This document shows, piece by piece, positions 43,271 through 58,341 of a stretch of DNA of 64,000 bases. The number at the start of each line of letters is the position of its first letter. The first letter of the stretch is position 1. The notes beneath the pieces were generated by a model. It saw only the letters and a list, made by a program, of their open reading frames with translations, was not told the DNA's origin and made no database searches. The stretch is from an uncultured Actinomycetes bacterium (GTDB taxonomy: Bacteria; Actinomycetota; UBA4738; HRBIN12), in the NCBI GenBank assembly GCA_963704885.1, contig CAVPIB010000001.1, forward strand, positions 32,001 through 96,000. The letters are read 5' to 3'. The position numbers were made by a program, and so were the translations under genes.

Positions 43271-44152
43271 CTAAAGCTCGCGGAGGTACTGGGCGACGGC
43301 GCTCAGGTCGCGACCCGCGAACCCGGCCTCGAGCGCCAGGCCGACCGTCTCCCGGTTCTGGATCGCCTGATCCATCCGGGCGCCAACCTCCCGCGCGAGA
43401 TCGAGGATCAGATCGAGATCCTTCGCCATCAGCTCCAAGAGGAACGCGGGCGGCGTCTCATCGGGATGCTCGAACGCCGCTCGCTTGTACAGCACGAACG
43501 GCGCAGCGGCGGCGCCGGCGGCGAACACGTCGTACGCGGCGCTCCGATCGACCCCGGCCTTCTCGGCGAGCACGAGCGCCTCCGAGAGCCCGACGTCGAT
43601 CGCGTGGATCAGCGCGTTCACGGCGAGCTTGACGGTGGCTCCCGCGCCGAGCGCACCGACGTGGAATACATCGGCAGCGAGCGCGCCTAGGACGGGCCGC
43701 GCGCGCTCTAGCGCCGCGCCGTCGCCGCCCACCATGATCGTGAGCTTGCCCTTCTCCACCGCGGGCACGCTGCCCGAGACCGGAGCGTCGAGCAATGTCG
43801 CGCCCTGCTCTTGGACCAGCGACGCGACACGGCGAACCGTCGCGGGCGCGATCGTGCTCATCTCCAGGACGATCTGCCCTTCGTGCAGGCCGGCGAGGAC
43901 GCCGGCAGGCCCCTCGTACGTCTCGAGCACCGCCGCGTCGTCGGCCAAGCTCGAGATCACCACGTCCACTCCGGCTACCGCGTCCCCGGCGGTGTCCGCC
44001 ACTTCCGAGCCGGTGCGTTCGGCGACCTCCTGGGCGGCGGCGGCCGTTCGGTTCCACACGCGCACGGGGAACCCGGCTCGCCGGAGCGTCGCCGCCATCG
44101 CGCCACCCATGCGCCCCATACCGACGACGGCCACCGCCATCGGCGTCGTCAT
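43271..44152 (-). CDS. Beta-hydroxyacid (3-hydroxyisobutyrate-type) dehydrogenase family
   Basis: VGMGRMG, DAPVSGS, KLAVN and MAKDL. Confidence 0.92.
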   Translation of the reverse strand: MTTPMAVAVVGMGRMGGAMAATLRRAGFPVRVWNRTAAAAQEVAERTGSEVADTAGDAVAGVDVVISSLADDAAVLETYEGPAGVLAGLHEGQIVLEMSTIAPATVRRVASLVQEQGATLLDAPVSGSVPAVEKGKLTIMVGGDGAALERARPVLGALAADVFHVGALGAGATVKLAVNALIHAIDVGLSEALVLAEKAGVDRSAAYDVFAAGAAAAPFVLYKRAAFEHPDETPPAFLLELMAKDLDLILDLAREVGARMDQAIQNRETVGLALEAGFAGRDLSAVAQYLREL

Positions 44153-44850
44153 GTCAGCGACCAACCTCCGTCGATCCGCAGCTCCGTCCCGTGCATCGAC
44201 GGATTCTCCAGCAGGAACACGGCTGCGTCGGTCACGTCGCGCATCTCGACCAGACGTCCGGTTGGGGTCTTCGCGCGCGTTGCCTCGAGCGCCTCGGTCT
44301 TCGGCGCCCAGAACGGGCTGTCCGCCACGATCCCGGGATGCAGCGCGTTCACTCGGATCGGAGGGAGCTCCGCGGCCATCGTCCGGACCAGTCCGTCCAC
44401 CCCGTGGTTGATCGTCGTGATCGTCGTGGAGCCCGGATACGGGCGCAGCTTCGCGAGGCCCCCATAGATGACGATCGACGCGTCGGGCGTGAGCCGCCCG
44501 AGCAGCGCGTGGACCGTTTCGGTGTAGCCCACGAGCTTCAGGGTGACCAGGCGGATCGCCTTCACGACGTCGTAGTCGGCGACGCTGTTGAGGTCGCGGT
44601 CGAGGGCCGCCAGGGCGAGCCGGTCGACGGTGCCGATCCCCGCGAGCCCCGGGGCGATCGTCTCGGGCTCGGACAGGTCGAACGCCGCGCTTCCCACGTT
44701 CTCGCCCAGCTCCCGGGCGGCGGCGGCGGCACGCTCCGCGTCGCGGCCCGTTACGACGACCTGGCGCCCCGCCTCGGTGTAGTGCCGCGCGAGGTCACGC
44801 CCGAGCCCCTGGGTCCCGCCGATCACGACCACGGTTCGTTCGTCTGTCAT
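44149..44850 (-). CDS. Atypical short-chain dehydrogenase/reductase
   Basis: VIGGTQGLG and PIRVNALHPG; no canonical YxxxK motif. Confidence 0.85.
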   Translation of the reverse strand: MTDERTVVVIGGTQGLGRDLARHYTEAGRQVVVTGRDAERAAAAARELGENVGSAAFDLSEPETIAPGLAGIGTVDRLALAALDRDLNSVADYDVVKAIRLVTLKLVGYTETVHALLGRLTPDASIVIYGGLAKLRPYPGSTTITTINHGVDGLVRTMAAELPPIRVNALHPGIVADSPFWAPKTEALEATRAKTPTGRLVEMRDVTDAAVFLLENPSMHGTELRIDGGWSLT

Positions 44851-44861
44851 CGAGCCTCCAG

Positions 44862-45755
44862 TCATCCTTCGGATGTCGCCTGTCGCAGGTAGTCCCAATC
44901 CCGGGCGAACCGGTACGAGTGACGCGAAGGTGGTTGCGGGGCTTGGGTTTCGAGCCACCGCACCGCACCCGGTCCCGGGTTGTCGAACGAATGGACGCAG
45001 CCCACCCCCGCCCAGGCGATGTCGCCGACCTCCAGTCGATAGGCCTCGCCGTCGAACGCCGCGTCCACCGCTCCATCGAGGATCAGGTACGTCTCTTCGA
45101 ACGGGTGATCGTGTGCGCCCGCAAGCCCGCGAGGTTCGTACTGCACCATGAACATCGTGAGGCTCTCGGCCCCCAGCTCGCGATCGATCATCATCTTCAC
45201 CGTGATGCCGCTGTAGACGAGCAACGCCGTCCGCATGCTGGCCGAGACCGCGAGCATGTCCTGGGTCTGCTTGCCGACCTCCATGTTCTGCGGGTCGATG
45301 TGGCCGAACGAACGAGTACGAGGATCGCGCACGTCGATCGGCGCCGGGTCGCGGATGGGAAGCGCCGGCACCGGATACGTGTCGCCGGCGACGCGAGCCC
45401 GCTGCTGCGGCGCCCACATCGTCGCCCACCGAGCGGGCGCTTCCGACACGTTGCGGAGCCCGTGAGGCGCGCCGATCGACGTCACGCCATAGTCGCCCGC
45501 ACCGAGCAGGAACGCGCCGTCGGCGGTGTCCAGGACCACCTCGCCCTCCAGCACGAAGAGACTGTCCTCGAAGCTGTGAACGTGCGCCGGGATCGCGCCG
45601 CCGGGGGCCAGCTCGGCGATCGCGAACGTCGTGTGGACGGCCCCGGGCGTGTCCTCGTCCACCACGGACCACCGACGGAAGCCCGACGCGGTGGAACCCG
45701 GCGGGACGGCGAGATCGATCTCGCCACCCCGCCGGACCAGGTGACGGGAGCTCAT
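44862..45755 (-). CDS. Bicupin protein
   Basis: HVHSFEDSLFVLEG...PHGLRN and HDHPFEETYLILDG...VHSFDN. Confidence 0.88.
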   Translation of the reverse strand: MSSRHLVRRGGEIDLAVPPGSTASGFRRWSVVDEDTPGAVHTTFAIAELAPGGAIPAHVHSFEDSLFVLEGEVVLDTADGAFLLGAGDYGVTSIGAPHGLRNVSEAPARWATMWAPQQRARVAGDTYPVPALPIRDPAPIDVRDPRTRSFGHIDPQNMEVGKQTQDMLAVSASMRTALLVYSGITVKMMIDRELGAESLTMFMVQYEPRGLAGAHDHPFEETYLILDGAVDAAFDGEAYRLEVGDIAWAGVGCVHSFDNPGPGAVRWLETQAPQPPSRHSYRFARDWDYLRQATSEG

Positions 45756-47116
45756 GATCCCGCCGACTCTTGCTTCTTCTTGGCGAGCGCCTCCAACAGG
45801 TAGGCGCTCGATGTCTCGACCCTCTTCCGCGCGGAGTCCCAATCCCCCGTGAGCTTGCCGTCCCGCTTGCGGGTGGCGCCCCCGACGATCACGGTGTCGA
45901 CGTTGGAGGTGTCGGCAGCGAGCACCACCGTCCCGACCGGGTCGATCACGGGAGCCGTCCCGGGAGCGGTCCCGTCGATCACGACCACATCGGCCTGCTT
46001 GCCCGGCGTCAGCGAACCGACCCGATCCTCGAGCCCGGCAACATGCGCGCCGTCGAGAGTCGCCATCGTGAGCATGTCGCGCGCTGTGAGCGCGTTCGAA
46101 GGCAACGGGTCCTCGCTCTCCCAGACGGAATCGTTCGACCTCCAACGCTCCTCGGCGAAGGCGCACCGCATCTCGGTGAACATGTCGCCGGGCACCGTGG
46201 TCACGACGTCGATCGACAGGCTAGGGCGCAGCCCGACGGCCTTCGCCTTCATGAACGGCGGCCAGCCGTGGCCCATCTGCATCTCCACCTGAGGAGCGAT
46301 CGAGATCGTGCCTTTGCTCTTGGCCACGAGTTCCCATTCCTCATCGGTGAAGTAGCAGCAGTGGATGTAGGTGGTATCCGCGCCGAGCAAGCCCAGCCCG
46401 TCGAGTTGCTTGACCATCCCCCACTTGCCGGCGAGCTTCCCCATCGCGATGTGCACCGTGATCGGGATGCCCAGATCGCGGGCCATCCCCCACTCAGCCT
46501 TCACGACGTCGTCTTGGCAGAACCCGGGACCACGCGTCGCGAGGCCCATCGTGAGCAGCCCGTCGTTGGAGGAGAAGTAGGTCGAGTGGATCCGCTCAAC
46601 GTCGTCACGCGGGATCACGATCGAGCTGTTGAACCAGTAGTCGGCGAGCGAAGTGTTGGCGCTGCCGTAGGCGTAGAGCGCGCGGATCCCGGCTTCCTTC
46701 AGGCCCTGGATCGCCGCGTCCGGATGATCGGGCGTGTTGTTGATGTGCGACCAATCGACGAGCGTCGTGATGCCGGCGTTCAGGCACTCCATCGCGCCCG
46801 CCAGGTCGCTCGCGTAGACGTCCTCGGGCCGGTACAGCGGAGCGAAGCTGTCGAGCACCTCGACGAAGTAGTCGTCCAGCGTGGCGTTCGGCGCGCAGCT
46901 GCGGATCGCCGCCTCCCACGTGTGACGATGCGTGTCCACGAACCCGGGGATCACGATGCTCCCCGTGCAGTCGATCACCTGCGCGTCGGCTGAGATGTCC
47001 TTGCCGACCTGCGCGATGGTGTCTCCCTCGATCAGGACGTCGCCTCCCGCGATGTCACCCAACCCGGGGTCGACCGTGAGCACATGACCCCCTCGCAACA
47101 AGATCCGATCCGCCAT
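45752..47116 (-). CDS. Amidohydrolase family (SsnA/MtaD-like), paralog 3
   Basis: PGFVDTHRH, TVH, YIHC, LSIDV and LTPGKQAD. Confidence 0.92.
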   Translation of the reverse strand: MADRILLRGGHVLTVDPGLGDIAGGDVLIEGDTIAQVGKDISADAQVIDCTGSIVIPGFVDTHRHTWEAAIRSCAPNATLDDYFVEVLDSFAPLYRPEDVYASDLAGAMECLNAGITTLVDWSHINNTPDHPDAAIQGLKEAGIRALYAYGSANTSLADYWFNSSIVIPRDDVERIHSTYFSSNDGLLTMGLATRGPGFCQDDVVKAEWGMARDLGIPITVHIAMGKLAGKWGMVKQLDGLGLLGADTTYIHCCYFTDEEWELVAKSKGTISIAPQVEMQMGHGWPPFMKAKAVGLRPSLSIDVVTTVPGDMFTEMRCAFAEERWRSNDSVWESEDPLPSNALTARDMLTMATLDGAHVAGLEDRVGSLTPGKQADVVVIDGTAPGTAPVIDPVGTVVLAADTSNVDTVIVGGATRKRDGKLTGDWDSARKRVETSSAYLLEALAKKKQESAGS

Positions 47117-47149: not shown

Positions 47150-48124
47150 TCACTTCACGGCGCGCAGGACGCCCTCGACGATCCGATCGACGGACGGGAT
47201 CGCGGCATCCTCGAGCACGTCGGCGGATGGCAGCGGCAGGTGCGGCGTCGTCACGCGAACGATAGGTCCGTCGAGCGCGAAGAATCCTTCCTCCGCAACG
47301 ATCGACGAGATCTCCGCGCCCCAGCCGCATAGACGCGGATTCTCCTCGACCGTGACGAGGTGGCTGGTCCTGCCCACGGAGTCCAAGATCGTGCTTACGT
47401 CGAGCGGCACCAGTGAACGGACGTCGATCACCTCGACCGACACGCCGTCACCGTCCAGCCGATCGGCCGCATCCAGCGCCTTCGGGACCATCGCGCCCAG
47501 CGCGCAGATCGTGACGTCGCCACCGGAACGGAGCACCCGAGCGGTCCCGAGACTATCCACGATCTCTCCGTCGGGAACATCACCCTTCGTCGAGTAGAGC
47601 ACCTTCGGCTCGATGACGATCACGGGATCCGGGTCACGGACCGCCGCGGCGAACAACCCGATCATGTCGACCGGTGTGGATGGGACCACTACCTTCAGGC
47701 CCGGGATCGCCATCATCCAGGACTCCACGCTCTGGGAGTGCTGCGCGCCGAACCGCACGCCGCCGCCGTTCGCGGTCCGGATCACGAGCGGCAGGGCGAC
47801 CTGTCCGTTCGTCATATAGCGGGTCTTCGCGATCTGGTTAGCCACGATGTCCCAGCAGACGGCGAAGAAGTCGCTGAACATCAGCTCGGCGATCGGGCGC
47901 AGACCGTTCATGGCCGCTCCCATCGCCGCGCCGATGATGGCCTGCTCGCTGATCGGTGTGTCGCGCACCCGCTCGGGGCCGAACCGATCGAGCAACCCCT
48001 CGGTCGTCTTGAACACACCGCCTGCCGCCGCGATGTCCTCGCCTATGAAGTAGACGGTCGGGTCGTGCTCCATCTCCTGGGCGATAGCGCGCGCGACGGC
48101 CTCGCGGTAGGTCAGCTCCGCCAT
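47150..48124 (-). CDS. TPP-dependent dehydrogenase E1 beta subunit (acetoin/pyruvate DH-like)
   Basis: DTPISEQ, ELMFSDF and GAQHSQ. Confidence 0.93.
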   Translation of the reverse strand: MAELTYREAVARAIAQEMEHDPTVYFIGEDIAAAGGVFKTTEGLLDRFGPERVRDTPISEQAIIGAAMGAAMNGLRPIAELMFSDFFAVCWDIVANQIAKTRYMTNGQVALPLVIRTANGGGVRFGAQHSQSVESWMMAIPGLKVVVPSTPVDMIGLFAAAVRDPDPVIVIEPKVLYSTKGDVPDGEIVDSLGTARVLRSGGDVTICALGAMVPKALDAADRLDGDGVSVEVIDVRSLVPLDVSTILDSVGRTSHLVTVEENPRLCGWGAEISSIVAEEGFFALDGPIVRVTTPHLPLPSADVLEDAAIPSVDRIVEGVLRAVK

Positions 48125-49110
48125 GCGGACCCCCCATCGGCCCACAGCTCGGTGTCGAGCGAGGCCGGGTCGGGCAGCGGCGCGGCCTTCGCTTCCTCGG
48201 TCGCGCGGTCTACGGCAGCAAGGACATCGACGTCGATCGCGTCAAGCACGCCGGCCTCCACGCCCTCGCCCACCAGGCGCTCGCGGTACATGGGGATGGG
48301 ATCCCGCCCCATCCACTCGGCGACCTCGTCGTCGGGCCGGTACTTCCCGGGATCGGCGCGCGAGTGGCCGCCGTGACGGTACGTCACGGCCTCAACCAGC
48401 GAAGGGCCCTCGCCCGCCCGAGCTCGATCGACGGCGCGCCGGGCCACCTCGTGCACCTCGTCTGGATCGTTGCCGTCGACGAGGATCGACTCCAGGCCGT
48501 AGGCGGAGGCCCGGTCGGCCGCCGGATGCTCCACCGCAGTAACGTCGCCGATCGCCGTGTACTCCATATATAGGTTGTTCTCGCAGACGTAGACGACCGG
48601 CAGGTTCCAGACCACCGCCAGGTTCAGCGCCTCGTGGAACGCACCGATGTTCGTGGTCCCGTCGCCGAAGAAACAGACCGCGACCTGTCCGGTGCCGCGG
48701 GCTTGCGCCGCCCAAGCCGCCCCCGCCGCGATGGGCATGTGCGCGCCGACGATCGCGTAGGACCCCATCGCGCCGTGCTCGACGTCGGTCAGGTGCATCG
48801 ACCCGCCCTTGCCGCCGCACACGCCGGTCCCTCGGCCCATGAGCTCGGCCATGAGGCCGCCCATCGGCGCCCCGCGAAGCAGCGTGTGAACGTGGCCGCG
48901 GTACGTGCAGAACACCAGGTCCTTCGGCTCCAGGGCGGCGGCGAACCCGGCGGCGACAGCCTCCTGGCCCAGACCCAGGTGCGAGGTCCCCTTGACCAGG
49001 CCCTCTAGGAACAGGTCGTGCGCCCGCTTCTCGAACAGGCGCCCTTCCTGCATCTTCCGGTAGATGTCGAGCCGGACCTCCAGGCCCGGCACCGTCGCCG
49101 TCTCAGTCAT
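48112..49110 (-). CDS. TPP-dependent dehydrogenase E1 alpha subunit
   Basis: GQEAV, TYRGH, GKGGSMH, FFGDG...ENN and YRHGGHSRAD. Confidence 0.93.
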   Translation of the reverse strand: MTETATVPGLEVRLDIYRKMQEGRLFEKRAHDLFLEGLVKGTSHLGLGQEAVAAGFAAALEPKDLVFCTYRGHVHTLLRGAPMGGLMAELMGRGTGVCGGKGGSMHLTDVEHGAMGSYAIVGAHMPIAAGAAWAAQARGTGQVAVCFFGDGTTNIGAFHEALNLAVVWNLPVVYVCENNLYMEYTAIGDVTAVEHPAADRASAYGLESILVDGNDPDEVHEVARRAVDRARAGEGPSLVEAVTYRHGGHSRADPGKYRPDDEVAEWMGRDPIPMYRERLVGEGVEAGVLDAIDVDVLAAVDRATEEAKAAPLPDPASLDTELWADGGSAWRS

Positions 49111-49141: not shown

Positions 49142-50401
49142 TCAGTACTCGTTCGCGACCATGAGCTCTTCGCACGGGAACAGCGTGATCACGCGGCAGC
49201 CGTCCGGGGTGACGACGACCTCTTCCTCGATCCGCGCAGCCGAGCGTCCGTCCGTGGCCGGACAGTACGTCTCCAGCGCGAACAGCATCCCTTCCTTGAT
49301 CTCCAGGGGATCCACGAAGGAATTCAGACGCGTGATGATCGGGCGCTCGTGCAGGCTGACCCCGACCCCATGGCCGAACTGAAGCCCGAACGCGTCCATC
49401 TCGTCTTGGAACCCGAACTCCTCGGCCCTGGGCCACACGGCCGCGATCTGGTCCGTCGAGACCCCCGGCTTGACGAGGTCGATGGCGGCGTCCATCCATT
49501 CGCGCGAGCGCTTGAACGCGTCGCGCTGCGCCGTGGTGGCGCGACCGACGACGAACGTCCGGTAATAGCAGGTCCGGTATCCGTTGAAGACGTGGATGAT
49601 GTCGAAGTACGCCTGATCGCCGGGACGGATCAGCCGGTCGGTGAAGACGTGCGGGTGCGGGCTGCACCGCTCGCCGGCGATCGAGTTGATCGCCTCCACG
49701 AACTCCGACCCCATCTCGAACAGGCGCGCATGCGCGAGGGCCACGATGTCGCTCTCGCGGACCCCCGGCTTCAGGGCCTCGAAGATGTCCTGATAGACCC
49801 CGTCGACCATCGCGCAAGCCTGCGTCAACAACATGATCTCGTCCTGGCTCTTGATCTCACGCGCATCGGCCATCACCTGCTGGCCGTCGCGCACAACGAT
49901 CCCGGCGTTCGCGAGCTCGAGGAAGATCGACGTCTCGGCGACGTCCACACCGAGCGGCATGTCGCCCACACCCTCTTCGACCATGATCGAGTGGATCTCC
50001 TGCACGGCGCGCGCTTGCAGGCCGACGCGCGGGTGGATCGCACCCTGGAGCCCGGTGTTGCCGGCGACCGAGTTCGTCTCGTCGTACAGGTGGGGCAGCT
50101 GCAGCCGGTGCGCCTTCGCCGCGGATCCGAAGTCGAATATCCGTGGCCGTCCCGTCCGCGTGAGGAGCGCGTAGCGTTCGCCCTTGTTGAAAGCCCAGTA
50201 GCCGATCTGCGTTGCCGTTACGTAGCGGATGTTGCTCGTGTCGAACAGGAGGAGCGCGCCCAGGTCGGAGGCCTCGAGCGCCTCACGAGTGCGCTTCAGC
50301 CGGTACGTTCGGAGCCGCTCGAAGTCGACGCGGACCTCCCAGTCGACGCCGGCGATGCCGGGAGCGGGGGTGGTCGCGACCGGGAACCCGTTCGTCGTCA
50401 T
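49142..50401 (-). CDS. M24 (pita-bread; Xaa-Pro peptidase/creatinase-like) hydrolase
   Basis: SNIRYVT, AREIKSQDEI, GYRTCYYRT, GHGVGVSLHE, ALE and RIEE. Confidence 0.9.
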   Translation of the reverse strand: MTTNGFPVATTPAPGIAGVDWEVRVDFERLRTYRLKRTREALEASDLGALLLFDTSNIRYVTATQIGYWAFNKGERYALLTRTGRPRIFDFGSAAKAHRLQLPHLYDETNSVAGNTGLQGAIHPRVGLQARAVQEIHSIMVEEGVGDMPLGVDVAETSIFLELANAGIVVRDGQQVMADAREIKSQDEIMLLTQACAMVDGVYQDIFEALKPGVRESDIVALAHARLFEMGSEFVEAINSIAGERCSPHPHVFTDRLIRPGDQAYFDIIHVFNGYRTCYYRTFVVGRATTAQRDAFKRSREWMDAAIDLVKPGVSTDQIAAVWPRAEEFGFQDEMDAFGLQFGHGVGVSLHERPIITRLNSFVDPLEIKEGMLFALETYCPATDGRSAARIEEEVVVTPDGCRVITLFPCEELMVANEY

Positions 50402-50443
50402 CGGCCTGCCCTCCTCGACCCTTGGGAGCGGTGACCACCCTCT

Positions 50444-50460
50444 TGACAGCCCCACTGTAC
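50444..50460 (-). promoter_or_regulatory. Internal promoter/operator: CAG-N5-CTG box overlapping a TACAGT -10
   Basis: TGACAGCCCCACTGTAC resembles the boxes at 58342-58452. Confidence 0.45.
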
Positions 50461-50521: not shown

Positions 50522-52972
50522 TCAGATAGATGGGGGTTTGAAGCCCGATTTGTTCACGACGAAGTCCCTGGACTCGGCGGCCATCCGTTTCACCGCCGGC
50601 CAGTCGACGTAGAGCAGCTCGCCATGACGTTTCATCACCCGACCTGCGATCAGGACCGTGTCGACGTTCCCCGTGTCCATCCCGGTCACGACCGCGGTCA
50701 CCGGGTCGTTCAGCGGGGTGACGTTGATCCGATCGGTCCGCAGCATGATGAGATCCGCCTGCTTGCCGGGTGTGAGGGTCCCTACCTTCGAGTCGAGCCC
50801 GTTCGCCTTGGCTCCCTCGATCGTGGCGCAGGCCAGGACCTCTCTCGTGGGGAGCATGGGCTTGCCCGACGAGGTCGCCGACGCCCGCTGCAGGGCCAGC
50901 ACCGAGCGCATCTGGTTGAACATGTCGCCCGGCACGTTCGTCTCAACGTCGACGCTCAGGCTCGGGCGAAGACCTCGATCCAGGAACTTCTGGATCGGGG
51001 GCATCCCGTGGCCCATCATCATCTCCACCGGCGAGGCGAGCGAAACGGTCCCCCCGGTGTCGACGATCATCTGGATCTCGGTGTCGTTCAGCGTGGTGCA
51101 GTGGATGTATGTCGTGTCTGGGCCCAGGAGCCCGGCCTCCCCCATCTCTTGGACCTTCGCATCCTGTCCGTAGCTGCCCACACCCACATGGGTCGTGATC
51201 CGCGCTCCGGCCTCGCGCGCCAGCTTCCAGTGATCTCGCGACACCTCGAAGTCCGTGAATTCTGGACCGGGAGCGGCCAGAGCGAGCGTGAGCATCTGAT
51301 CGTTCGAAGAGAAGTGCTCTGTCGCCGCCCGAACGAACCAGCTGGGCTGACGCTCCTCCCACTTGCCCCACCACGGGAACCCGTAGGCGAACACCGCCCT
51401 CAGGCCCGAGTCCTTCAGCGCTTGGACAACCGCGTCCGTATGGGCCGGTGAGGCCTGGATATGCGACCAATCCAGGAGCGTGGTGATCCCTGCGTCGATG
51501 GCGCCCAGCGCCGAGAGCAGATCGCCGATGTACGCATCCTCCGGCCGGAACGCGGGCGCCAACTTGTGCAACACGAACGAGATGTAGCTCGACCTTCCCT
51601 CCAACGGAACATCGGTTCCGATGTTGCGCAGGAGGCCCTCCCAGATATGGCGATGGCTGTCGACGAAGCCCGGCATGACGATCATGTCCGATGCGTCGAT
51701 CACCTCGGCGTCCGCAGCTGCCAGACCGGGGCCGACCTCGACGATCTGGTCCTCGTCGATGAGGACGTCTGCGGTCGTGAAGTCACCCACGTTCGGGTCC
51801 AGGCTGAGCACGGTGCCGCCCCGTATGAGTGTCCTTCCCGTCGGCACGACCTTGAAGTCGGGTCCCGAGGGGTACAGATCGGGGATCTCGGCCAACCTCG
51901 GGGGTCGGCTCCCGATCATCAGGCGCCGGGCTCGCTTGTAGTTGCGCTTGACGAGCTCTTTGATGTCGCCCGCCTGGAAGAGCACGATCCCCAGCAGCAC
52001 CAGCACGCCGGTGATCATCTGGCCGTGCTCGGTACTCAGTTCGAGGAACGGAAGCGCGCTCAGGATGAGCGCCAGGAGCACAGACGCCACCGTTGCACCC
52101 AGGAACGTCGCCCTTCCGCCCGAGAGCGCAGCCCCACCGAGCACCGCCGCCGTGATGCTGGCGAGGGCGTAGCTGTCACCGATCTGTGCGTTACCGATCC
52201 CGGATCGGGTCATGACCAAGAAGGAAGCGATCGTCGCGAACAGGGCCGAGAGCACCAAAGCCCTTGCTCGCACCCACGTCGTGCGGACTCCGCTTCGCTT
52301 CGCCGACCGCTCGTCGAACCCGACCGAGCGCAGCTGGAGCCCCGAGCCGCTGGCGTGGAGCCAATAGTCGAGCAGGGCGGCCCCGACCAAGACCACGACG
52401 AAGACGATGGGGACCGCTCCGAACCCATTCGCCAGCCAGCCGGTGAAGTCGCGATCGATGACGCCACCCGGAGTGTCCCGCAAGGTCAGCGATATCCCGC
52501 TGAGGATGCTGAGCGTGGCCAACGTGGCGATGATCGACGGGATCTTGAGCCAGAGAACCAGACCGGCATTGACCAGCCCCAGAGCCAGTCCGCACGCGAA
52601 GATGGCGCCGACCCCGAGCAGGATCTCGCTGGTGGTGGAGTCGGGACCGATCAGGTACGAAGCGATCACGACGCCGAGGGTCACCATCGCCCCCACGGAT
52701 AGGTCGAGGTAGCCGACCAGTAGCGCATGGGTCTGGCCCATCGCCGCGACAGCCAGCGGCGCGGCGAGCAGGAGGATGTAGGTCACGTTCGACCGGTTGA
52801 TGAACCCCGGGAACCGCGAGCTGGTGTACCAGGCGACGAGGACGATCAGCAGGAGCTGAAGCACCACAGGCATCCACAGGCGGAACCGGACGATCTTGCG
52901 CCACTTGTTCTTGTCGCGGGCATCGCGGATGACCTTGCGTACCGCCAGCCGCGCGGAGTCGATCCGTGTCAC
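50522..52972 (-). CDS. RbsC-type ABC permease fused to an amidohydrolase (paralog 2)
   Basis: LDLSVG, IPSIIATL and AAVLGGAALSGG, then in frame PGFVDSHRH, TTHVG, YIHC and LSVDV; GTG overlaps the ATPase stop. Confidence 0.85.
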   Translation of the reverse strand: MTRIDSARLAVRKVIRDARDKNKWRKIVRFRLWMPVVLQLLLIVLVAWYTSSRFPGFINRSNVTYILLLAAPLAVAAMGQTHALLVGYLDLSVGAMVTLGVVIASYLIGPDSTTSEILLGVGAIFACGLALGLVNAGLVLWLKIPSIIATLATLSILSGISLTLRDTPGGVIDRDFTGWLANGFGAVPIVFVVVLVGAALLDYWLHASGSGLQLRSVGFDERSAKRSGVRTTWVRARALVLSALFATIASFLVMTRSGIGNAQIGDSYALASITAAVLGGAALSGGRATFLGATVASVLLALILSALPFLELSTEHGQMITGVLVLLGIVLFQAGDIKELVKRNYKRARRLMIGSRPPRLAEIPDLYPSGPDFKVVPTGRTLIRGGTVLSLDPNVGDFTTADVLIDEDQIVEVGPGLAAADAEVIDASDMIVMPGFVDSHRHIWEGLLRNIGTDVPLEGRSSYISFVLHKLAPAFRPEDAYIGDLLSALGAIDAGITTLLDWSHIQASPAHTDAVVQALKDSGLRAVFAYGFPWWGKWEERQPSWFVRAATEHFSSNDQMLTLALAAPGPEFTDFEVSRDHWKLAREAGARITTHVGVGSYGQDAKVQEMGEAGLLGPDTTYIHCTTLNDTEIQMIVDTGGTVSLASPVEMMMGHGMPPIQKFLDRGLRPSLSVDVETNVPGDMFNQMRSVLALQRASATSSGKPMLPTREVLACATIEGAKANGLDSKVGTLTPGKQADLIMLRTDRINVTPLNDPVTAVVTGMDTGNVDTVLIAGRVMKRHGELLYVDWPAVKRMAAESRDFVVNKSGFKPPSI

Positions 52973-54534
52973 GTCATGCTCTGCGGGGAGGGGCCCCGGG
53001 GCATGGCGACGCCCAGCGGTGAACGCCCCGCTTTGGACAGGCCGGGCCCACGGACTATGGCCTCGACTATGCGTAGCTCGTCGAGCTCGTCGCCGGGGAT
53101 CTCCTCGATGATCTGGCCGCGGGACATCACGAGGACCCGGTCGCACAGACCGGCGAGCTCCAGGGGATCGCTCGACTTGACGAGCATGGCCGTACCGGCG
53201 TCGGTCCGGGAACGCAGCGCCGTATAGATGTCGAAGCGGGAGCCGACGTCGACGCCCTGCGTGGGCTCGTAGGCCAGGATCACGGTCGGCTCCTTCAGGA
53301 ACGATCGCGAGACCGCGACCTTCTGTTGGTTACCCCCCGACAGGAACTCGACCGGCTGCTCGAGCGATGGGGTGCGGATCTCGAGCCGCTCAACCAATTG
53401 CCCTACGGTCTTGCGTTCCAGTCGCCGGCGCAGGAAGCCGAGCACGCTGAACCGGCGCAGCGTTTGGACGGTCGCGTTGACCCGGACCCCGAGTACGGGC
53501 ATCAGGGCCTCGTGCTTGCGGTCACCCGGCAGCAGCATGATCCCGGACCGCACCGCCTCGTGGGTCGAGATCAGGTTCAGCTCCTTCCCGGCGCAGACCA
53601 CGCGGCCTGCTCTGGGCGGCTGCCTGCCCGCCAGGCAGTCGAAGAGCTGAGGCTGGCCGTTCCCCTCGGCGCCGGCGATGCCGACGATCTCCCCACCCTC
53701 CAGCGTGAAGCTGACGGGACCGAAGGACTGGCCTTGCAGACCGTCGACGACCAGCACCTCGCCCGCCTCGCCGCCCTCATGTGCCGGTGGTGGGAACGCA
53801 GTCTCGAGCGGGCGTCCGACGATCAGCTCGACCAACGCGGACTCGGAGGTATCGCCGGCATCGAAGGTGCCCTGGTTCCGACCATCGCGAAGGACCGTGA
53901 TCCGATCCGCGACCTCCAGGACCTCGGGCAGGCGATGACTCACATAGACGACTCCTACGCCGCGGCTCCGACAGGCGGCGACGGTCCTGTGAAGCGCCTC
54001 CACCTCGGTGGGTCCCAGAGCCGTGGTCGGCTCGTCCAGCAGGAGGACCTTCGGATCGGTGACGAGAGCCTTGGCCACCTCGAAGAGCTGGCGGTCGGCC
54101 AGGGTGAGGAACCCGGCCGGGGCGTCGGGGAAGAGCTCCAGGTCCAGATCGAACTCCGCCAGCACGCGGCGCGCCCACCGCTTCCTCCGCCAGAAGTGAG
54201 GTCGTTGGTCCGGCGGCGCCGCCAGGTAGAGGTTGTTCTTGACCGGCTGGGCCAAGATCAGCGACGTGTCCTGGTAGGCCATGGCCAACCCCAGCTTCCG
54301 GGCCTCCGCCGGGGAGTCCCGGCGCAGGGGGTGGCCCCCGATCTGGATCGTTCCCAGATCGGGGTCCACGATCCCGCTCGCGATCCCGAGGAGGGTCGAT
54401 TTGCCCGAGCCGTTCTCGCCCACGAGGGCGTGGATCTCCCCGGCGCGGCAGTCGAAGCTGACATCGGTCAGCGCTCGAACCGCACCGAACTGCCGGGAGA
54501 CCCCACGCAGCTCGAGGACCAGGTCCTCGGTCAC
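52969..54534 (-). CDS. Sugar-type (RbsA-like) dual ABC ATP-binding protein
   Basis: GENGSGKS, LDEPT, SHRL and LSGGNQQKV. Confidence 0.93.
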   Translation of the reverse strand: MTEDLVLELRGVSRQFGAVRALTDVSFDCRAGEIHALVGENGSGKSTLLGIASGIVDPDLGTIQIGGHPLRRDSPAEARKLGLAMAYQDTSLILAQPVKNNLYLAAPPDQRPHFWRRKRWARRVLAEFDLDLELFPDAPAGFLTLADRQLFEVAKALVTDPKVLLLDEPTTALGPTEVEALHRTVAACRSRGVGVVYVSHRLPEVLEVADRITVLRDGRNQGTFDAGDTSESALVELIVGRPLETAFPPPAHEGGEAGEVLVVDGLQGQSFGPVSFTLEGGEIVGIAGAEGNGQPQLFDCLAGRQPPRAGRVVCAGKELNLISTHEAVRSGIMLLPGDRKHEALMPVLGVRVNATVQTLRRFSVLGFLRRRLERKTVGQLVERLEIRTPSLEQPVEFLSGGNQQKVAVSRSFLKEPTVILAYEPTQGVDVGSRFDIYTALRSRTDAGTAMLVKSSDPLELAGLCDRVLVMSRGQIIEEIPGDELDELRIVEAIVRGPGLSKAGRSPLGVAMPRGPSPQSMT

Positions 54535-54559: not shown

Positions 54560-55849
54560 TTATCCGGTTGGGTACATCAGGGCGAGCACCGCGTCCGGAA
54601 CCAGGGAAGTCCCCGACACGGTCGGCGTCACCCGGTCCGGGTTGCAGTCCGACGCCGTGACCTCCCGCATGACGTGCGGGACCACGATCTCGGCGGGGAT
54701 CTCCGCACCCTGGAGGGACATCATCGAGGCCGTGACCGCGGTCCGTGACTGGAAGTTGCCCCCCGCCGAGTACCAGATGTGGAAGTTCGGGTTGTTCATC
54801 TTCTTCCACGTGCAGAACAGGGTCTGCTCATCGGTCCTCAGCGCGACCGTGAGATCCTTCACCGGGATCCCGAGGTCGTCGTACGCCTGCATGGCGGTGT
54901 TCAGCCCGTCCGCGTACTCGTACGCGTACCCGGCGATGTCGGGGTCTGTCGAGAGCCACCCGTTGACCGTCTGGAGCGCTACGTCGTTCGACCAGTACGT
55001 GTCCGCGGGACCGAGCTCCTTGATCCCGCTGCCCAGCGCCGGGCTGAAGCACTGCTCCCAACCGAGGGAGAGGGCGTTGCCCGGTGTGCCACCCATGACT
55101 CCCACCTTGCCGGAGCCGACCCCGTCGTTGATCACCTGGGCGAAGCTCTCACCCAGTGCGCAGAGGTCCTCCCCGACGACGGTGAGGTAGTCCTCACCGG
55201 GGACGAGCGCCCCTTCCTGGCCGGGAAGGCCAACCCAGCCCGCCGAATAAGTGGTGTACGGGATGCCGGCCGCCTGGGTCTCCAGGATGGCATCGGCGAT
55301 GTTCGTGCCCTGGTCGGGATAGCCGATGATGAAGGTGGCTCCGGCCTGGATCAGGAACCTGATGTCGCCGGCGGCGACCGCAGGGTCCGGGTTCCACTGA
55401 GCGTCACGGAAGAGCATCTTGCCGATCTCCGGGTAGGTGAGCGCCTGGAGGATGGCCTCCATGCGGGTCACCTGACGCCAGACGTTCAGCCCTCCGCCGT
55501 CGGCGTACCCCATGACGACGTCGCCATCGGTGCCGGTGTCGCACTTGGTCGCGGCCCAGCACTCCATCGCCTTGTCGATGGTGGCCTGATCGAGGTCCTG
55601 GCTGGCACGGGCGATCGATGCCAGGACGATGTCCGGCACGCCCGTGACGGTTCCCATGGCTTTCTCAACCAACGCCGGGTCGGCATCCGTGCTCTCACCG
55701 AACTCCGCCAACGGTCCTGCGCTCTCGGTGGCCGACGGTTCGCTGGTGGCGGCTCCGGTCGGGCTCGCCTCCCCGTCACCACCACTGCTGCATGCCGCTG
55801 CCACAACCGCGAGGCACACGACGATGCCGATGATCTTGATCCGTTGCAT
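54560..55849 (-). CDS. ABC substrate-binding lipoprotein (periplasmic binding protein type I-like)
   Basis: GGAGGAGG RBS; lipobox VAAAC; Ser/Thr/Ala linker; GGTPGN motif. Confidence 0.8.
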   Translation of the reverse strand: MQRIKIIGIVVCLAVVAAACSSGGDGEASPTGAATSEPSATESAGPLAEFGESTDADPALVEKAMGTVTGVPDIVLASIARASQDLDQATIDKAMECWAATKCDTGTDGDVVMGYADGGGLNVWRQVTRMEAILQALTYPEIGKMLFRDAQWNPDPAVAAGDIRFLIQAGATFIIGYPDQGTNIADAILETQAAGIPYTTYSAGWVGLPGQEGALVPGEDYLTVVGEDLCALGESFAQVINDGVGSGKVGVMGGTPGNALSLGWEQCFSPALGSGIKELGPADTYWSNDVALQTVNGWLSTDPDIAGYAYEYADGLNTAMQAYDDLGIPVKDLTVALRTDEQTLFCTWKKMNNPNFHIWYSAGGNFQSRTAVTASMMSLQGAEIPAEIVVPHVMREVTASDCNPDRVTPTVSGTSLVPDAVLALMYPTG

Positions 55850-55926
55850 GTTCCTCCTCCCGTTCTGATCGATGGCACTCGCCATCCTTGGTCGATGGGA
55901 CTGGCTGATACATGCCTCCTTTCTCA

Positions 55927-56973
55927 TCACGCTCGATCGCTGGGATCGACGGTCCGTGCCTCCACGACATCCAGTCGCTTCCGCTCTCGAAGTACCTGCT
56001 CCACGCCTCGGATGATCCGATCACCCGAGACCAACATGCCCCCGACGATGACCAGACCGAAGACCACGAATTGCAGCGCCGTGGGCAGGCCCATGACCCG
56101 CATCATCTGGGTGAGCCCGGCTAGGAAGAACGCCGCCGCCCAGGTGGACAAGGGGCTGGCCAACCCACCCGTGAGCGATGCGCCCCCGATCACCACGGCG
56201 GCGATCGGACCCAGCAGGTAGGGAGCCCCGATCGTGATGCTGATCGTCCGCAGGAACGACGCCAGCAGGATCCCCGCCACCGCGTAGAGGACCGCCGCCA
56301 CCACGTAGGCGGAAACCTGGTTCAAGTTGACCCGCAGACCGGAGATCCGCGACGCGGTTGGGTTGGCGCCCACGACCTGGAACTTCCGCCCAGGCGTGGT
56401 GAACCGGAAGATGACGATCAGCGCGAGCGTGAGGATCGCGCCGACCCAGAAGGTCCGCGTTACTCCCAGGAACCGCGTCGACGTCCATGCGGAGAGGCCC
56501 TCCGGTACCGGGGTCTGGATCGCGGAACTCGTGTAATAGCGGATGGCGATGCCGATCACGATCTGGCCCACGGCCAGCGTGACGATGAGAGCGTTGAGCC
56601 CCAGCCCACCGATGAGGATCCCGTTGACCAACCCGACCAATGCCGCCAGGACCAAGGCGACGCCGATCGCGGTCCATATGCGATCGTCGGACCCCTGCCC
56701 GACCCCCACGGTGACCACCGCGGCCAGCGTGAATGTTCCGGGAACGCTGAGGTCGATGCCGCCGGTCATGATCACCAGCATCTGGCCGAGCGCCGTGATG
56801 GCCAGGAACGTGCCGAAGGGCGCGATGGAGCTCAGCGCGGGCCCGCGCAGCGTGGCCGGTGCCCAGATCGTTGCGACGACGACGAGCAGCGCGATCGCGA
56901 TGTAGACGGGCAGGTAGCGGGAGGCCACCACGAACGACGTGAGCGCCGACGAAGGAGCCCGGGACGCGCTCAT
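55927..56973 (-). CDS. RbsC-type ABC permease
   Basis: GGIDLSV, GANPTASRISG and AAVVIGGASLTGG; ATG overlaps the upstream stop. Confidence 0.9.
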   Translation of the reverse strand: MSASRAPSSALTSFVVASRYLPVYIAIALLVVVATIWAPATLRGPALSSIAPFGTFLAITALGQMLVIMTGGIDLSVPGTFTLAAVVTVGVGQGSDDRIWTAIGVALVLAALVGLVNGILIGGLGLNALIVTLAVGQIVIGIAIRYYTSSAIQTPVPEGLSAWTSTRFLGVTRTFWVGAILTLALIVIFRFTTPGRKFQVVGANPTASRISGLRVNLNQVSAYVVAAVLYAVAGILLASFLRTISITIGAPYLLGPIAAVVIGGASLTGGLASPLSTWAAAFFLAGLTQMMRVMGLPTALQFVVFGLVIVGGMLVSGDRIIRGVEQVLRERKRLDVVEARTVDPSDRA

Positions 56974-58263
56974 CCCTGACCTCCCGACGCGGCGCCGACG
57001 ACCAGTCCGGAGGAGACGGCCACCCGCTGCCGCGCCGCGGTCGCCAGGCTTCGTGCGCGCTGCACATCTGCTTCCAGGACGCCGTCGCGCATCACGACGC
57101 GTCCGCCGACGAACACCCGATCGACGTTCGAGGTGTCCATACCCCACACCACAGCGCCGATCGGGTCGTTGACCGGGAAGATGTTGGGGCGGTCGGTCCG
57201 AAGCATGACGACGTCCGCCTGCATACCCGGCTCCAGGGATCCGGTCACCCGGCCCAGTCCGGCCACCCGCGCTCCGTCCACCGTCGCGAAGCGGATCGCG
57301 TCGCGCGTGCTCATCAGCCGAGGGAGGCCGGCCTTCCCGGCAAGCTTGAGATCGAAGACGACGGCATGCTGCAGCGAGATCGTCTCCCGCATCTGGGCGA
57401 ACATGTCGCCCGGAGCCGCTCGTTCGTCGTCGATCCCCAGACCCGGACGGATGTCGCGGTCGATCAGCTGCTGGATCGGAGGCCGTCCGAGACCTGCGGC
57501 CATCTGACTCGAAGGCGAGAGGGACACCGCTGACTCCAGATGCGGCGATGGCATCGACATCCGCGTCGTCGAGGCCCGACGGGTGCACGAGCGTGACGTC
57601 TTCACCCAGGAGCGCTTTGTGGGCGAGATCGGAGACCACACCCCGCCCGGAGCTCCCCGGATCGGCGTGGACGTGGATGCGCAGGCCCTGCTCCCGGGCG
57701 ATCGCCCACTGGCCGGCGACCCTGTCGAGATCCATCGACCCAGGCAGGACGGACCCGAACGCGATGCTGGTCGACGGTCCGGCCGCCTCGGCGAGGCCCC
57801 GGTCGTGAGCGTCTTGGACGAACACGGTGCGCAGCGCGGCATCGGCGTGGGCTTGGAGCGCGGCTTCAGCGAAGCCCTCCTCGGATCGGACGAGTGACCA
57901 GTCGACGACGGTCGTTATCCCCGCCTCGGCCGCTCCCAGCAAGCCGATCAGCGTGGCGGCATAGACGTCCTCGGGCTGATAGTGATCGCCGAGCGCCGAT
58001 GCGGGCATCGACGCCTCCCCCCTCCAGGCCGGCTCACCGAGGTTTCGGAACAACGACGTCCAGGCATGACGGTGAGTGTCGACGAACCCGGGCATGACGA
58101 TGGTGTCGGTCGCGTCCACCTGCTCGGCGTCGCGGTCCCGGAGCCCGGGGCCGACCTCGGCCACCACGTCTCCGTCGATCAGGACGTCGGCCTTGGTGAA
58201 GTTGGGAGTCTTCGCCCCCAGGGTGAGGACGCACCCACCGCTCAGCAGGATCTTCGACGTCAC
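56970..58263 (-). CDS. Amidohydrolase family, paralog 1; frameshift near 57535; start approximate
   Basis: PGFVDTHRH, IHVH and LVH, then ORF 56970..57842 with GIDD and LEPGMQAD. Confidence 0.87.
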
Positions 58264-58341
58264 GATCGGCCCCAAGCGCCATCGCGCCGGCGACGCGACC
58301 CGCCCCGATCACTGCCACTGTTGAACGAGTGCCCCCTCACC

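Follow-up and report, generated by a model that had tools for sequence, protein, structure and literature searches.

A predicted ABC importer permease that carries an amidohydrolase on the same polypeptide

We describe here a gene in which the permease of a predicted ATP-binding cassette (ABC) importer continues in frame into an amidohydrolase. It lies on the minus strand, at 50522..52972, of a 64,000-nucleotide stretch of DNA from an uncultured Actinomycetes bacterium (GenBank assembly GCA_963704885.1, contig CAVPIB010000001.1, positions 32,001 to 96,000), referred to below as the window. Its 816 codons and stop form one unbroken frame that encodes permease B of the importer, a linker and the amidohydrolase. 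An initial annotation of the window had proposed an RbsC-type permease fused in frame to an amidohydrolase, and one uninterrupted frame of 816 amino acids (aa) bears this out. The tests set out below confirm that the fusion is genuine and selectively maintained, not an indel artefact. We think it reasonably likely that each importer has one active amidohydrolase tethered to it in the cytoplasm, and that this enzyme hydrolyses the compound taken up or the first product made from it.

The longest open reading frame (ORF) listed for the gene starts at a GTG at 53146 and would encode 874 aa. A second GTG, at 52972, shares the four nucleotides GTGA with the TGA of the upstream ATPase gene, and fused homologues are 811-839 aa long in 105 of the 120 best database matches. 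For these two reasons the product likely starts at GTG 52972 and has 816 aa rather than 874. The permease part (residues 1-337; 51962..52972, minus strand) comprises a cytoplasmic N-terminal helix rich in Lys and Arg (K/R) followed by 10 predicted transmembrane (TM) helices with the BPD_transp_2 domain. The linker takes up residues 338-380 (51833..51961, minus strand); described initially as a stop-free stretch of about 45 aa (KELVKRNYKRARRL...PDFKVVPTGR), it was located here as 43 aa with no stop in frame. The remaining 436 aa (residues 381-816; 50525..51832, minus strand) form an amidohydrolase domain of the NCBIfam family NF006056 (PRK08204) with a TRZ/ATZ-like fold.

A fused frame might reflect an assembly or indel error in which a lost base hides the stop codon of the permease. 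The initial annotation had warned of false fusions made by indels elsewhere in the window, and the warning was justified: the gene for a free amidohydrolase in the same window, AmiA, is frameshifted, which yields a false ORF of 782 aa. Several assemblies from relatives are also full of frameshifts, and a TGATGA lies out of frame at codons 351-353 of the fused gene. This hexamer was considered as the relic of a stop and start; it is explained by Leu-Met/Val-Ile codons and is lacking in two of 14 genes, and we give it no weight as evidence.

Against an artefact stand hundreds of independent full-length homologues. Searched against JGI, NCBI, ENA and Logan sources, a query spanning the junction (residues 280-480; E<=0.001) matched 1931 proteins, whose best 120 include the 105 of 811-839 aa. 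Both the permease and the amidohydrolase Pfam families were present on 112 of these 120, and the remaining eight were N-terminal truncations of 540-630 aa in which the junction was still covered. The window's order was represented by 294 genomes; in 65 of them, belonging to four families, the match ran unbroken from residue 7 or earlier to residue 816, so that the close homologues are not all pairs of separate genes, a point that the initial annotation had raised. A query restricted to the permease domain matched 86 of the 294 genomes (E<=1e-45). Leaving out the unpublished genomes G048, G125 and G192, the uninterrupted fusion was present in 62 of 291 genomes and a permease-domain match in 83 of 291. 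The whole permease domain was covered at 74 places in the 294 genomes, 70 of them in frames of at least 817 aa and four in frames of 550-659 aa; in none of the 74 did the frame end right after the permease. Both the fused gene and the whole operon are intact in the one-contig genome G128.

Apparent stand-alone permeases of 380-447 aa were also considered as split forms of the gene. All 22 that we inspected carry the linker in frame and then break, either at variable positions or at contig ends, and by their sequences these are frameshifted or partial genes rather than split ones. The whole linker is spanned by Logan contigs from three sequencing runs, which belong to two studies (X1, 51755-52047; X3, 51814-52016; X4, 51693-52126), and these contigs differ from the window by substitutions only, with no gaps; a frameshift in the linker, another ground for doubt raised initially, was thus absent from all three. 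Given the unbroken frame in 65 genomes, the gapless contigs over the junction and the codon-level purifying selection on the linker in its present frame, we give an artefact next to no chance.

Selection was estimated across 14 intact genes from 14 genomes. The ratio of non-synonymous to synonymous substitution rates (dN/dS) was 0.28 for the transmembrane domain (TMD), 0.26 for the linker and 0.14 for the enzyme domain. In 47 close homologues, 11 linker residues are invariant: K338, E339, L340, K342, N344, Y345, R347, R349, R350, G354 and Y367. Taken together, the linker dN/dS and these invariant residues indicate that the present reading frame of the linker is under selection. The last TM helix, TM10, is predicted to run on as a K/R-rich helix through KELVKRNYKRARRL to about residue 354, beyond which the linker becomes a Pro-rich coil. 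AlphaFold2 confidence (predicted local distance difference test, pLDDT) is 58-65 over residues 331-360, which take in the first half of the linker, and 77-85 over its second half. These values come from a model built on a 134-row alignment that included free enzymes and free permeases (mean pLDDT 87.5, predicted template modelling score (pTM) 0.62); it superseded a run on the 47 close homologues only, which had a mean pLDDT of 54 and was unusable.

The enzyme domain matches Amidohydro_1 at residues 431-779 (116.6 bits, cut-off 25) and NF006056 with 526.4 bits against a cut-off of 391. The initial annotation had described a complete amidohydrolase with HxH, His, His and Asp ligands, and all are present: the HxH motif of H440 and H442 (51647..51655), H595 (51188-51190), H624 (51101-51103) and D675 (50948-50950), all on the minus strand. 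They fall on strand 1 (HxH), strand 5 (His), strand 6 (His) and strand 8 (Asp) of a predicted distorted (beta/alpha)8 barrel, which is accompanied by a beta-sandwich formed from the N- and C-terminal parts; pLDDT is mostly above 90 across the domain. The four His ligands are conserved in 47 of 47 close homologues and D675 in 46 of 47, and all five ligands are present in 15 of 15 sequences across the two branches of the family described below. To judge from these residues, the fused domain looks catalytically competent.

In fold and ligand set the domain resembles the TRZ/ATZ (COG0402-like) enzymes, among them AtzA (4v1x), TrzN (3ls9) and the deaminases of this group that act on isocytosine or 8-oxoguanine (7ww2, 3hpa) and on MTA/SAH (4f0r, 1p1m). 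The best solved relatives by sequence were 3hpa, AtzA, TrzN, Vcz and MTA/SAH deaminases, at E values of 1e-27 and weaker. Foldseek comparison of the predicted domain with solved relatives, including AtzA (4v1x), TrzN, 3HPA, TM0936 and 1j6p, gave TMt values of 0.83-0.90, at sequence identities of only 19-25%. Unlike these enzymes, the domain is fused to a membrane permease and has a Val, V598 (51179-51181, minus strand), at the position of the HxxE glutamate found in deaminases of the same branch. This glutamate is the proton shuttle of the characterized deaminases, and the fused domain is probably not a standard deaminase, judging by its sequence. NF006056 itself is named 'PRK08204 hypothetical protein', a family without an assigned function. 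Four residues, E445, H469, H581 and Y601, are invariant in 47 of 47 fused proteins; in 60 free enzymes the corresponding positions are mostly Gln, Gly, Asp/Glu and variable, respectively.

The permease part matches BPD_transp_2 (PF02653) at residues 63-327 with 89.6 bits (cut-off 26.8), and the match covers positions 2-267 of the 269 in the profile, in keeping with the full permease described initially. Hydropathy, K/R distribution and AlphaFold2 agree on 10 TM helices, preceded by a K/R-rich N-terminus and followed, past TM10, by the K/R-rich tail KRNYKRARR, so that by the positive-inside rule the C-terminal enzyme domain would lie in the cytoplasm. A K/R-rich loop at residues 202-235, predicted to be cytoplasmic and to contain short helices at 209-226, is the presumed coupling region. 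No PDB chain matching the TMD by sequence was found.

The complete importer is predicted to consist of a lipoprotein substrate-binding protein (SBP), permease A, the permease B-amidohydrolase fusion and one ATPase with tandem nucleotide-binding domains (NBDs). With one fused permease B per predicted complex, each transporter would have exactly one tethered copy of the enzyme. To judge from Pfam families and operon features, the transporter belongs with the CUT2-type sugar importers, a label that we take to cover ribose, arabinose, xylose and autoinducer-2 (AI-2) systems. Like RbsABC, AraFGH, LsrACDB and YtfQRT-YjfF, it has a Peripla_BP_4 SBP, a two-NBD ATPase and two BPD_transp_2 permeases of about 10 TM helices; unlike them, its permease B ends in a 43-aa linker and a 436-aa amidohydrolase. 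None of the NCBIfam equivalog models for permeases and ATPases reached its cut-off, the ATPase scoring 390 bits with AraG and 350 bits with RbsA, both below threshold. In the second NBD of the ATPase, nine of nine aligned orthologues have the sequence GAEGNGQ at the Walker A position, which lacks the customary Lys, and one of the ATP sites may be degenerate.

Among representatives clustered at 50% identity, the best 150 matches contained one full-length fusion, P0121 (822 aa, 73% identity); the others were free amidohydrolases (37-58% identity) or fragments. Confinement of the fusion to one order was nevertheless the wrong conclusion, as a Chloroflexota-labelled branch falls in the same 50% cluster range. 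This second branch was searched with a 51%-identical partial permease labelled 'Anaerolineae', and the best 120 longer matches were taken. Both Pfam families were present on all 120, 115 of which are 809-844 aa long, and the six matches with a named source are all labelled Chloroflexi or Anaerolineae. The second branch is larger than that of the window. Identity of its members to the window protein is 68-75% for the enzyme domain, against 44-52% for the TMD and 20-51% for the linker, and the juxtamembrane motif D-[IL]-K-E-L-.-K-.-N-[YF]-K-R is recognizable in part of its sequences. The permease part evolves much faster than the enzyme part both between the branches, as these values show, and within the window's order, where identities are 66-87% and about 77-91%, respectively.

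A quick maximum-likelihood tree of 46 rows placed the eight fused domains in one clade (Shimodaira-Hasegawa-like approximate likelihood ratio test, SH-aLRT, 100). AmiA fell in the same half of the tree as the fused domains and AmiC, another free paralogue encoded in the window, in the other half. On this evidence, a single origin of the fusion is likely. The nearest free enzymes come from Acidobacteriota-labelled and Nostoc-labelled records in which no transporter adjoins them, and the nearest free permeases are 41-53% identical. In Alphaproteobacteria-labelled loci (L034, L038 and others among L033-L043), PRK08204-type amidohydrolases of 37-42% identity directly follow LivG/LivF-type ATPases; there the importer is of the Peripla_BP_6 type, a thiamine-diphosphate enzyme is encoded nearby and the amidohydrolase is unfused. 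Some free relatives (480-530 aa) have N-terminal extensions of 40-70 residues, which in P0129 (512 aa) include a hydrophobic signal-like stretch, and some members of the PRK08204-type family may, on this basis, be exported.

On the minus strand of the window, the gene order is AmiA, permease A, lipoprotein SBP, tandem-NBD ATPase, fusion, M24 hydrolase, E1 alpha, E1 beta, AmiC, bicupin, short-chain dehydrogenase (SDR) and 6PGDH-type reductase, with 4-nucleotide start/stop overlaps at three of the operon junctions. AmiA, a free paralogous amidohydrolase (56970..58275, minus strand), carries one frameshift at about 57502-57530 that spreads it over two frames, corresponding to residues 1-271 and 263-440 of the G128 orthologue, and the resulting false 'amidohydrolase-permease A' ORF extends over 55927..58275. 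AmiA is intact in relatives such as G128, and the break may be an assembly error or mark a pseudogene. Permease A (55927..56973, minus strand) is an unfused BPD_transp_2 protein whose ATG overlaps the AmiA stop (ATGA). The Peripla_BP_4 SBP (54560..55930, minus strand) has a lipoprotein-like signal (..LAVVAAAC..), and translation probably starts at the Met in position 28 of the ORF. The ATPase (52969..54534, minus strand) has 521 aa and two RbsA/AraG-like NBDs. Its gene lies directly upstream of the fusion in all 17 relatives' loci examined, and the M24 gene usually follows the fusion.

Downstream of the fusion, and adjoining it, is the M24 hydrolase with a creatinase-type N-domain (DddP/creatinase/prolidase-like; 49142..50455, minus strand). 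It is followed by a thiamine-diphosphate-dependent 2-oxoacid dehydrogenase (47150..49110, minus strand), of which E1 alpha is encoded at 48112-49110 and E1 beta at 47150-48145. AmiC (45752..47116, minus strand), the third paralogous amidohydrolase, scores 604.8 bits with NF006056 and is 46% identical to the fused domain. The ATG of the bicupin gene (44865-45755, minus strand) overlaps the AmiC stop, and the SDR gene lies at 44149-44850 on the same strand. As leads to a substrate or pathway these neighbours were tried and set aside: the M24 protein has only a distant likeness to DddP and prolidase; the bicupin reached 31 bits against a cut-off of 338 for (S)-ureidoglycine aminohydrolase, and the 6PGDH-type reductase 182 bits against a cut-off of 341 for tartronate semialdehyde reductase, which makes a ureide- or glyoxylate-type pathway no more than a weak lead.

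For the second branch we examined 16 of 49 metagenome loci, picked for their long flanks. In 12 of these the fusion is full-length and the upstream DNA sufficient, and all 12 had a free amidohydrolase followed by permease A, the SBP, the ATPase and the fusion, in that order; two more had the same genes cut at the fusion, and the last two had the free amidohydrolase only. Together with the relatives' loci, this order identifies a five-gene module as the conserved core. In the second branch the M24 gene is not adjacent to the fusion, being present in one of the 16 loci and there at a distance, and two of the loci have an E2 acyltransferase, two bicupins and an SDR upstream. The bicupin, SDR and 2-oxoacid dehydrogenase parts recur beside the five-gene core; bicupin and SDR accompany the module in both the window and the Chloroflexota-labelled branch (L061, 1182-3641; L058, 1222-2969), the window bicupin being 60% identical to that of L061. 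An E2 acyltransferase lies upstream in L061 and L058; the window has E1 alpha and beta, with no E2 nearby.

We favour a reading in which the tethered enzyme would cut the solute, or its first product, on leaving the translocation pathway. Hydrolysis would trap the solute metabolically, and the product would be passed to the free paralogous amidohydrolase(s), the M24 hydrolase, the bicupin, the SDR and the 2-oxoacid dehydrogenase parts. From the conserved fusion, from the free paralogue that heads the operon in both branches and from the separate linkage of more distant PRK08204-type enzymes to another importer type in Alphaproteobacteria-labelled loci, we infer that enzyme and importer share a substrate. 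The imported compound is probably a small molecule containing nitrogen, in which a ring or a sugar-like skeleton bears an amide, amidine or amino group.

Several observations weigh against this reading or parts of it. Linkers of the wider family share just 20-51% identity with that of the window, two of them with insertions of some tens of residues, and AlphaFold2 defines no arrangement between the two domains (pTM 0.62; pLDDT 58-65 at residues 331-360). Free paralogues of the same enzyme family are encoded in the operon, which implies that the tether is not needed for catalysis as such. The motif that reads H-L-A-E in 3hpa is H595-V-G-V598 in the window protein, and the Val is present in 15 of 15 fused sequences; replacement of the Glu makes the chemistry of the domain uncertain. 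Equivalog models of characterized relatives (8-oxoguanine, guanine, MTA/SAH and 5'-deoxyadenosine deaminases and N-ethylammeline chlorohydrolase) all scored far below their cut-offs, the best values being 174 against 609, 169 against 522 and 135 against 532. As regards the substrate, the SBP had no PDB relative at E<=0.01, no NCBIfam match and, among Atlas clusters, matches to Peripla_BP_4 only. Of the sequencing runs listed in a search for the gene none was of RNA, a result that bears neither way on its expression.

The initial annotation had suggested transport-coupled hydrolysis or substrate channelling at the membrane. The anatomy of the protein and the conserved operon fit this suggestion, and the variable linker and the pTM of 0.62 speak against a tight channel. 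A linker that varies in the wider family favours a flexible tether over a fixed channel and, together with the lack of a confident inter-domain geometry, makes tethering or co-localization better supported than a sealed channel.

The same two features, and the free paralogues in the operon, also sit well with a real fusion that has no kinetic role. Loss of a stop codon would then have joined two neighbours, and the product would be kept for co-expression, stoichiometry or membrane localization; the enzyme may even act on a later intermediate rather than on the entering compound. Codon 352 is ATG in five and GTG in eight of 14 genes (13/14 in total), and this could be the relic of a former start. 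Such a neutral joining accounts poorly for a linker that is held by purifying selection no less strongly than the TMD and has 11 residues invariant in 47 homologues, for the fact that none of the 74 permease matches stops after the domain and no clean split is present among the shorter database proteins, and for retention of the fusion across two differently labelled phyla; we regard it as unlikely, though not to be dismissed lightly. The start-like codon 352 would equally suit two proteins made from one frame, by internal initiation there or by cleavage in the linker, whose Pro-rich coil is predicted with lower confidence, so that the fusion would exist at the DNA level only. A Shine-Dalgarno-like motif precedes codon 352 in just three of the 13 genes and is not conserved; the window has none before its in-frame ATG, in agreement with the initial observation that the junction lacks an obvious ribosome-binding site and start. 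There is also no upstream stop for termination-reinitiation, internal initiation would still leave the full-length protein being made, and the protein sequence of the linker is under purifying selection, all of which leaves this explanation a very slim chance.

A different role for the domain would be that of a sensor or regulator, binding substrate or product and gating the transporter by trans-inhibition. C-terminal regulatory domains occur on some ABC ATPases, and an accessory cytoplasmic domain on an importer, with E445, H469, H581 and Y601 specific to the fused proteins (47/47), would suit such a role. As against this, all five catalytic metal ligands are kept, and the enzyme domain is the most conserved part of the protein, both in dN/dS (0.14) and between branches (68-75% against 44-52% identity), as expected of a working enzyme; the regulatory domains of known systems are, moreover, on the ATPase and not on the permease. 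We therefore consider a sensor very improbable. More speculatively, the tethered enzyme and its free paralogue could form a hetero-oligomer docked at the importer exit, such that uptake would be obligatorily coupled to hydrolysis and occupancy would feed back on transport. Both branches provide each importer with one free and one tethered amidohydrolase; this pairing, like the invariant residues particular to the fused proteins, is compatible with such an arrangement, which we rate as distinctly unlikely; if true, it would be an ABC version of group translocation.

Other domains fused to ABC systems include substrate-binding and CBS domains (OpuA, GlnPQ), regulatory domains (MalK/MetN) and the C39 peptidase of bacteriocin exporters. 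To our knowledge, none of these is a metabolic hydrolase on an importer permease, and we know of no ABC importer permeases that carry metabolic enzymes. The initial annotation did not recognize the architecture, which is fair: public records give the fused proteins non-specific names, for example 'amidohydrolase family protein', and searches of the full-text literature, which did not extend to subscription journals or InterPro architecture tables, turned up no description of a fusion between permease and amidohydrolase or of PRK08204. The nearest functional precedent that we could document is the mycobacterial IrtAB, in which a cytoplasmic siderophore interaction domain on the IrtA chain reduces imported mycobactin (PMC11779899). 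As in the window protein, an enzyme domain facing the cytoplasm and thought to process the import shares one polypeptide with a TMD; IrtAB differs in its exporter-type fold, its N-terminal flavin reductase and its working without a binding protein, and there is no homology between the two. The window protein, by comparison, would serve an SBP-dependent importer, and its permease has a hydrolase attached at the C-terminus.

A natural and widespread importer with a covalently attached catabolic enzyme would be a ready system in which to test the coupling of uptake to catabolism, including metabolic trapping, avoidance of a toxic free intermediate and fixed stoichiometry. In the manner of a 'Rosetta stone', the fusion also links two orphans, the NF006056/PRK08204 family and the SBP, as probably acting on the same compound, one of apparent importance to uncultured Acidimicrobiia and Chloroflexota, which are abundant in sediments and soils. 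The SBP offers a direct experimental handle on the imported compound.

Two loci among the relatives depart from the usual arrangement. In L013 (G153:C24, 3267-8888) the fused gene is present twice in tandem: the copy beside the ATPase has several frameshifts and a more divergent permease part (66% identity), and the second copy is intact (79% identity). In L020 (G090:C5, 3350-5052), about 70 N-terminal AmiA-like residues are joined directly to the last TM helix, the linker and the amidohydrolase of the fused gene. The locus lacks permease A, the SBP, the ATPase and the greater part of permease B, and is either a deletion derivative or a misassembly.

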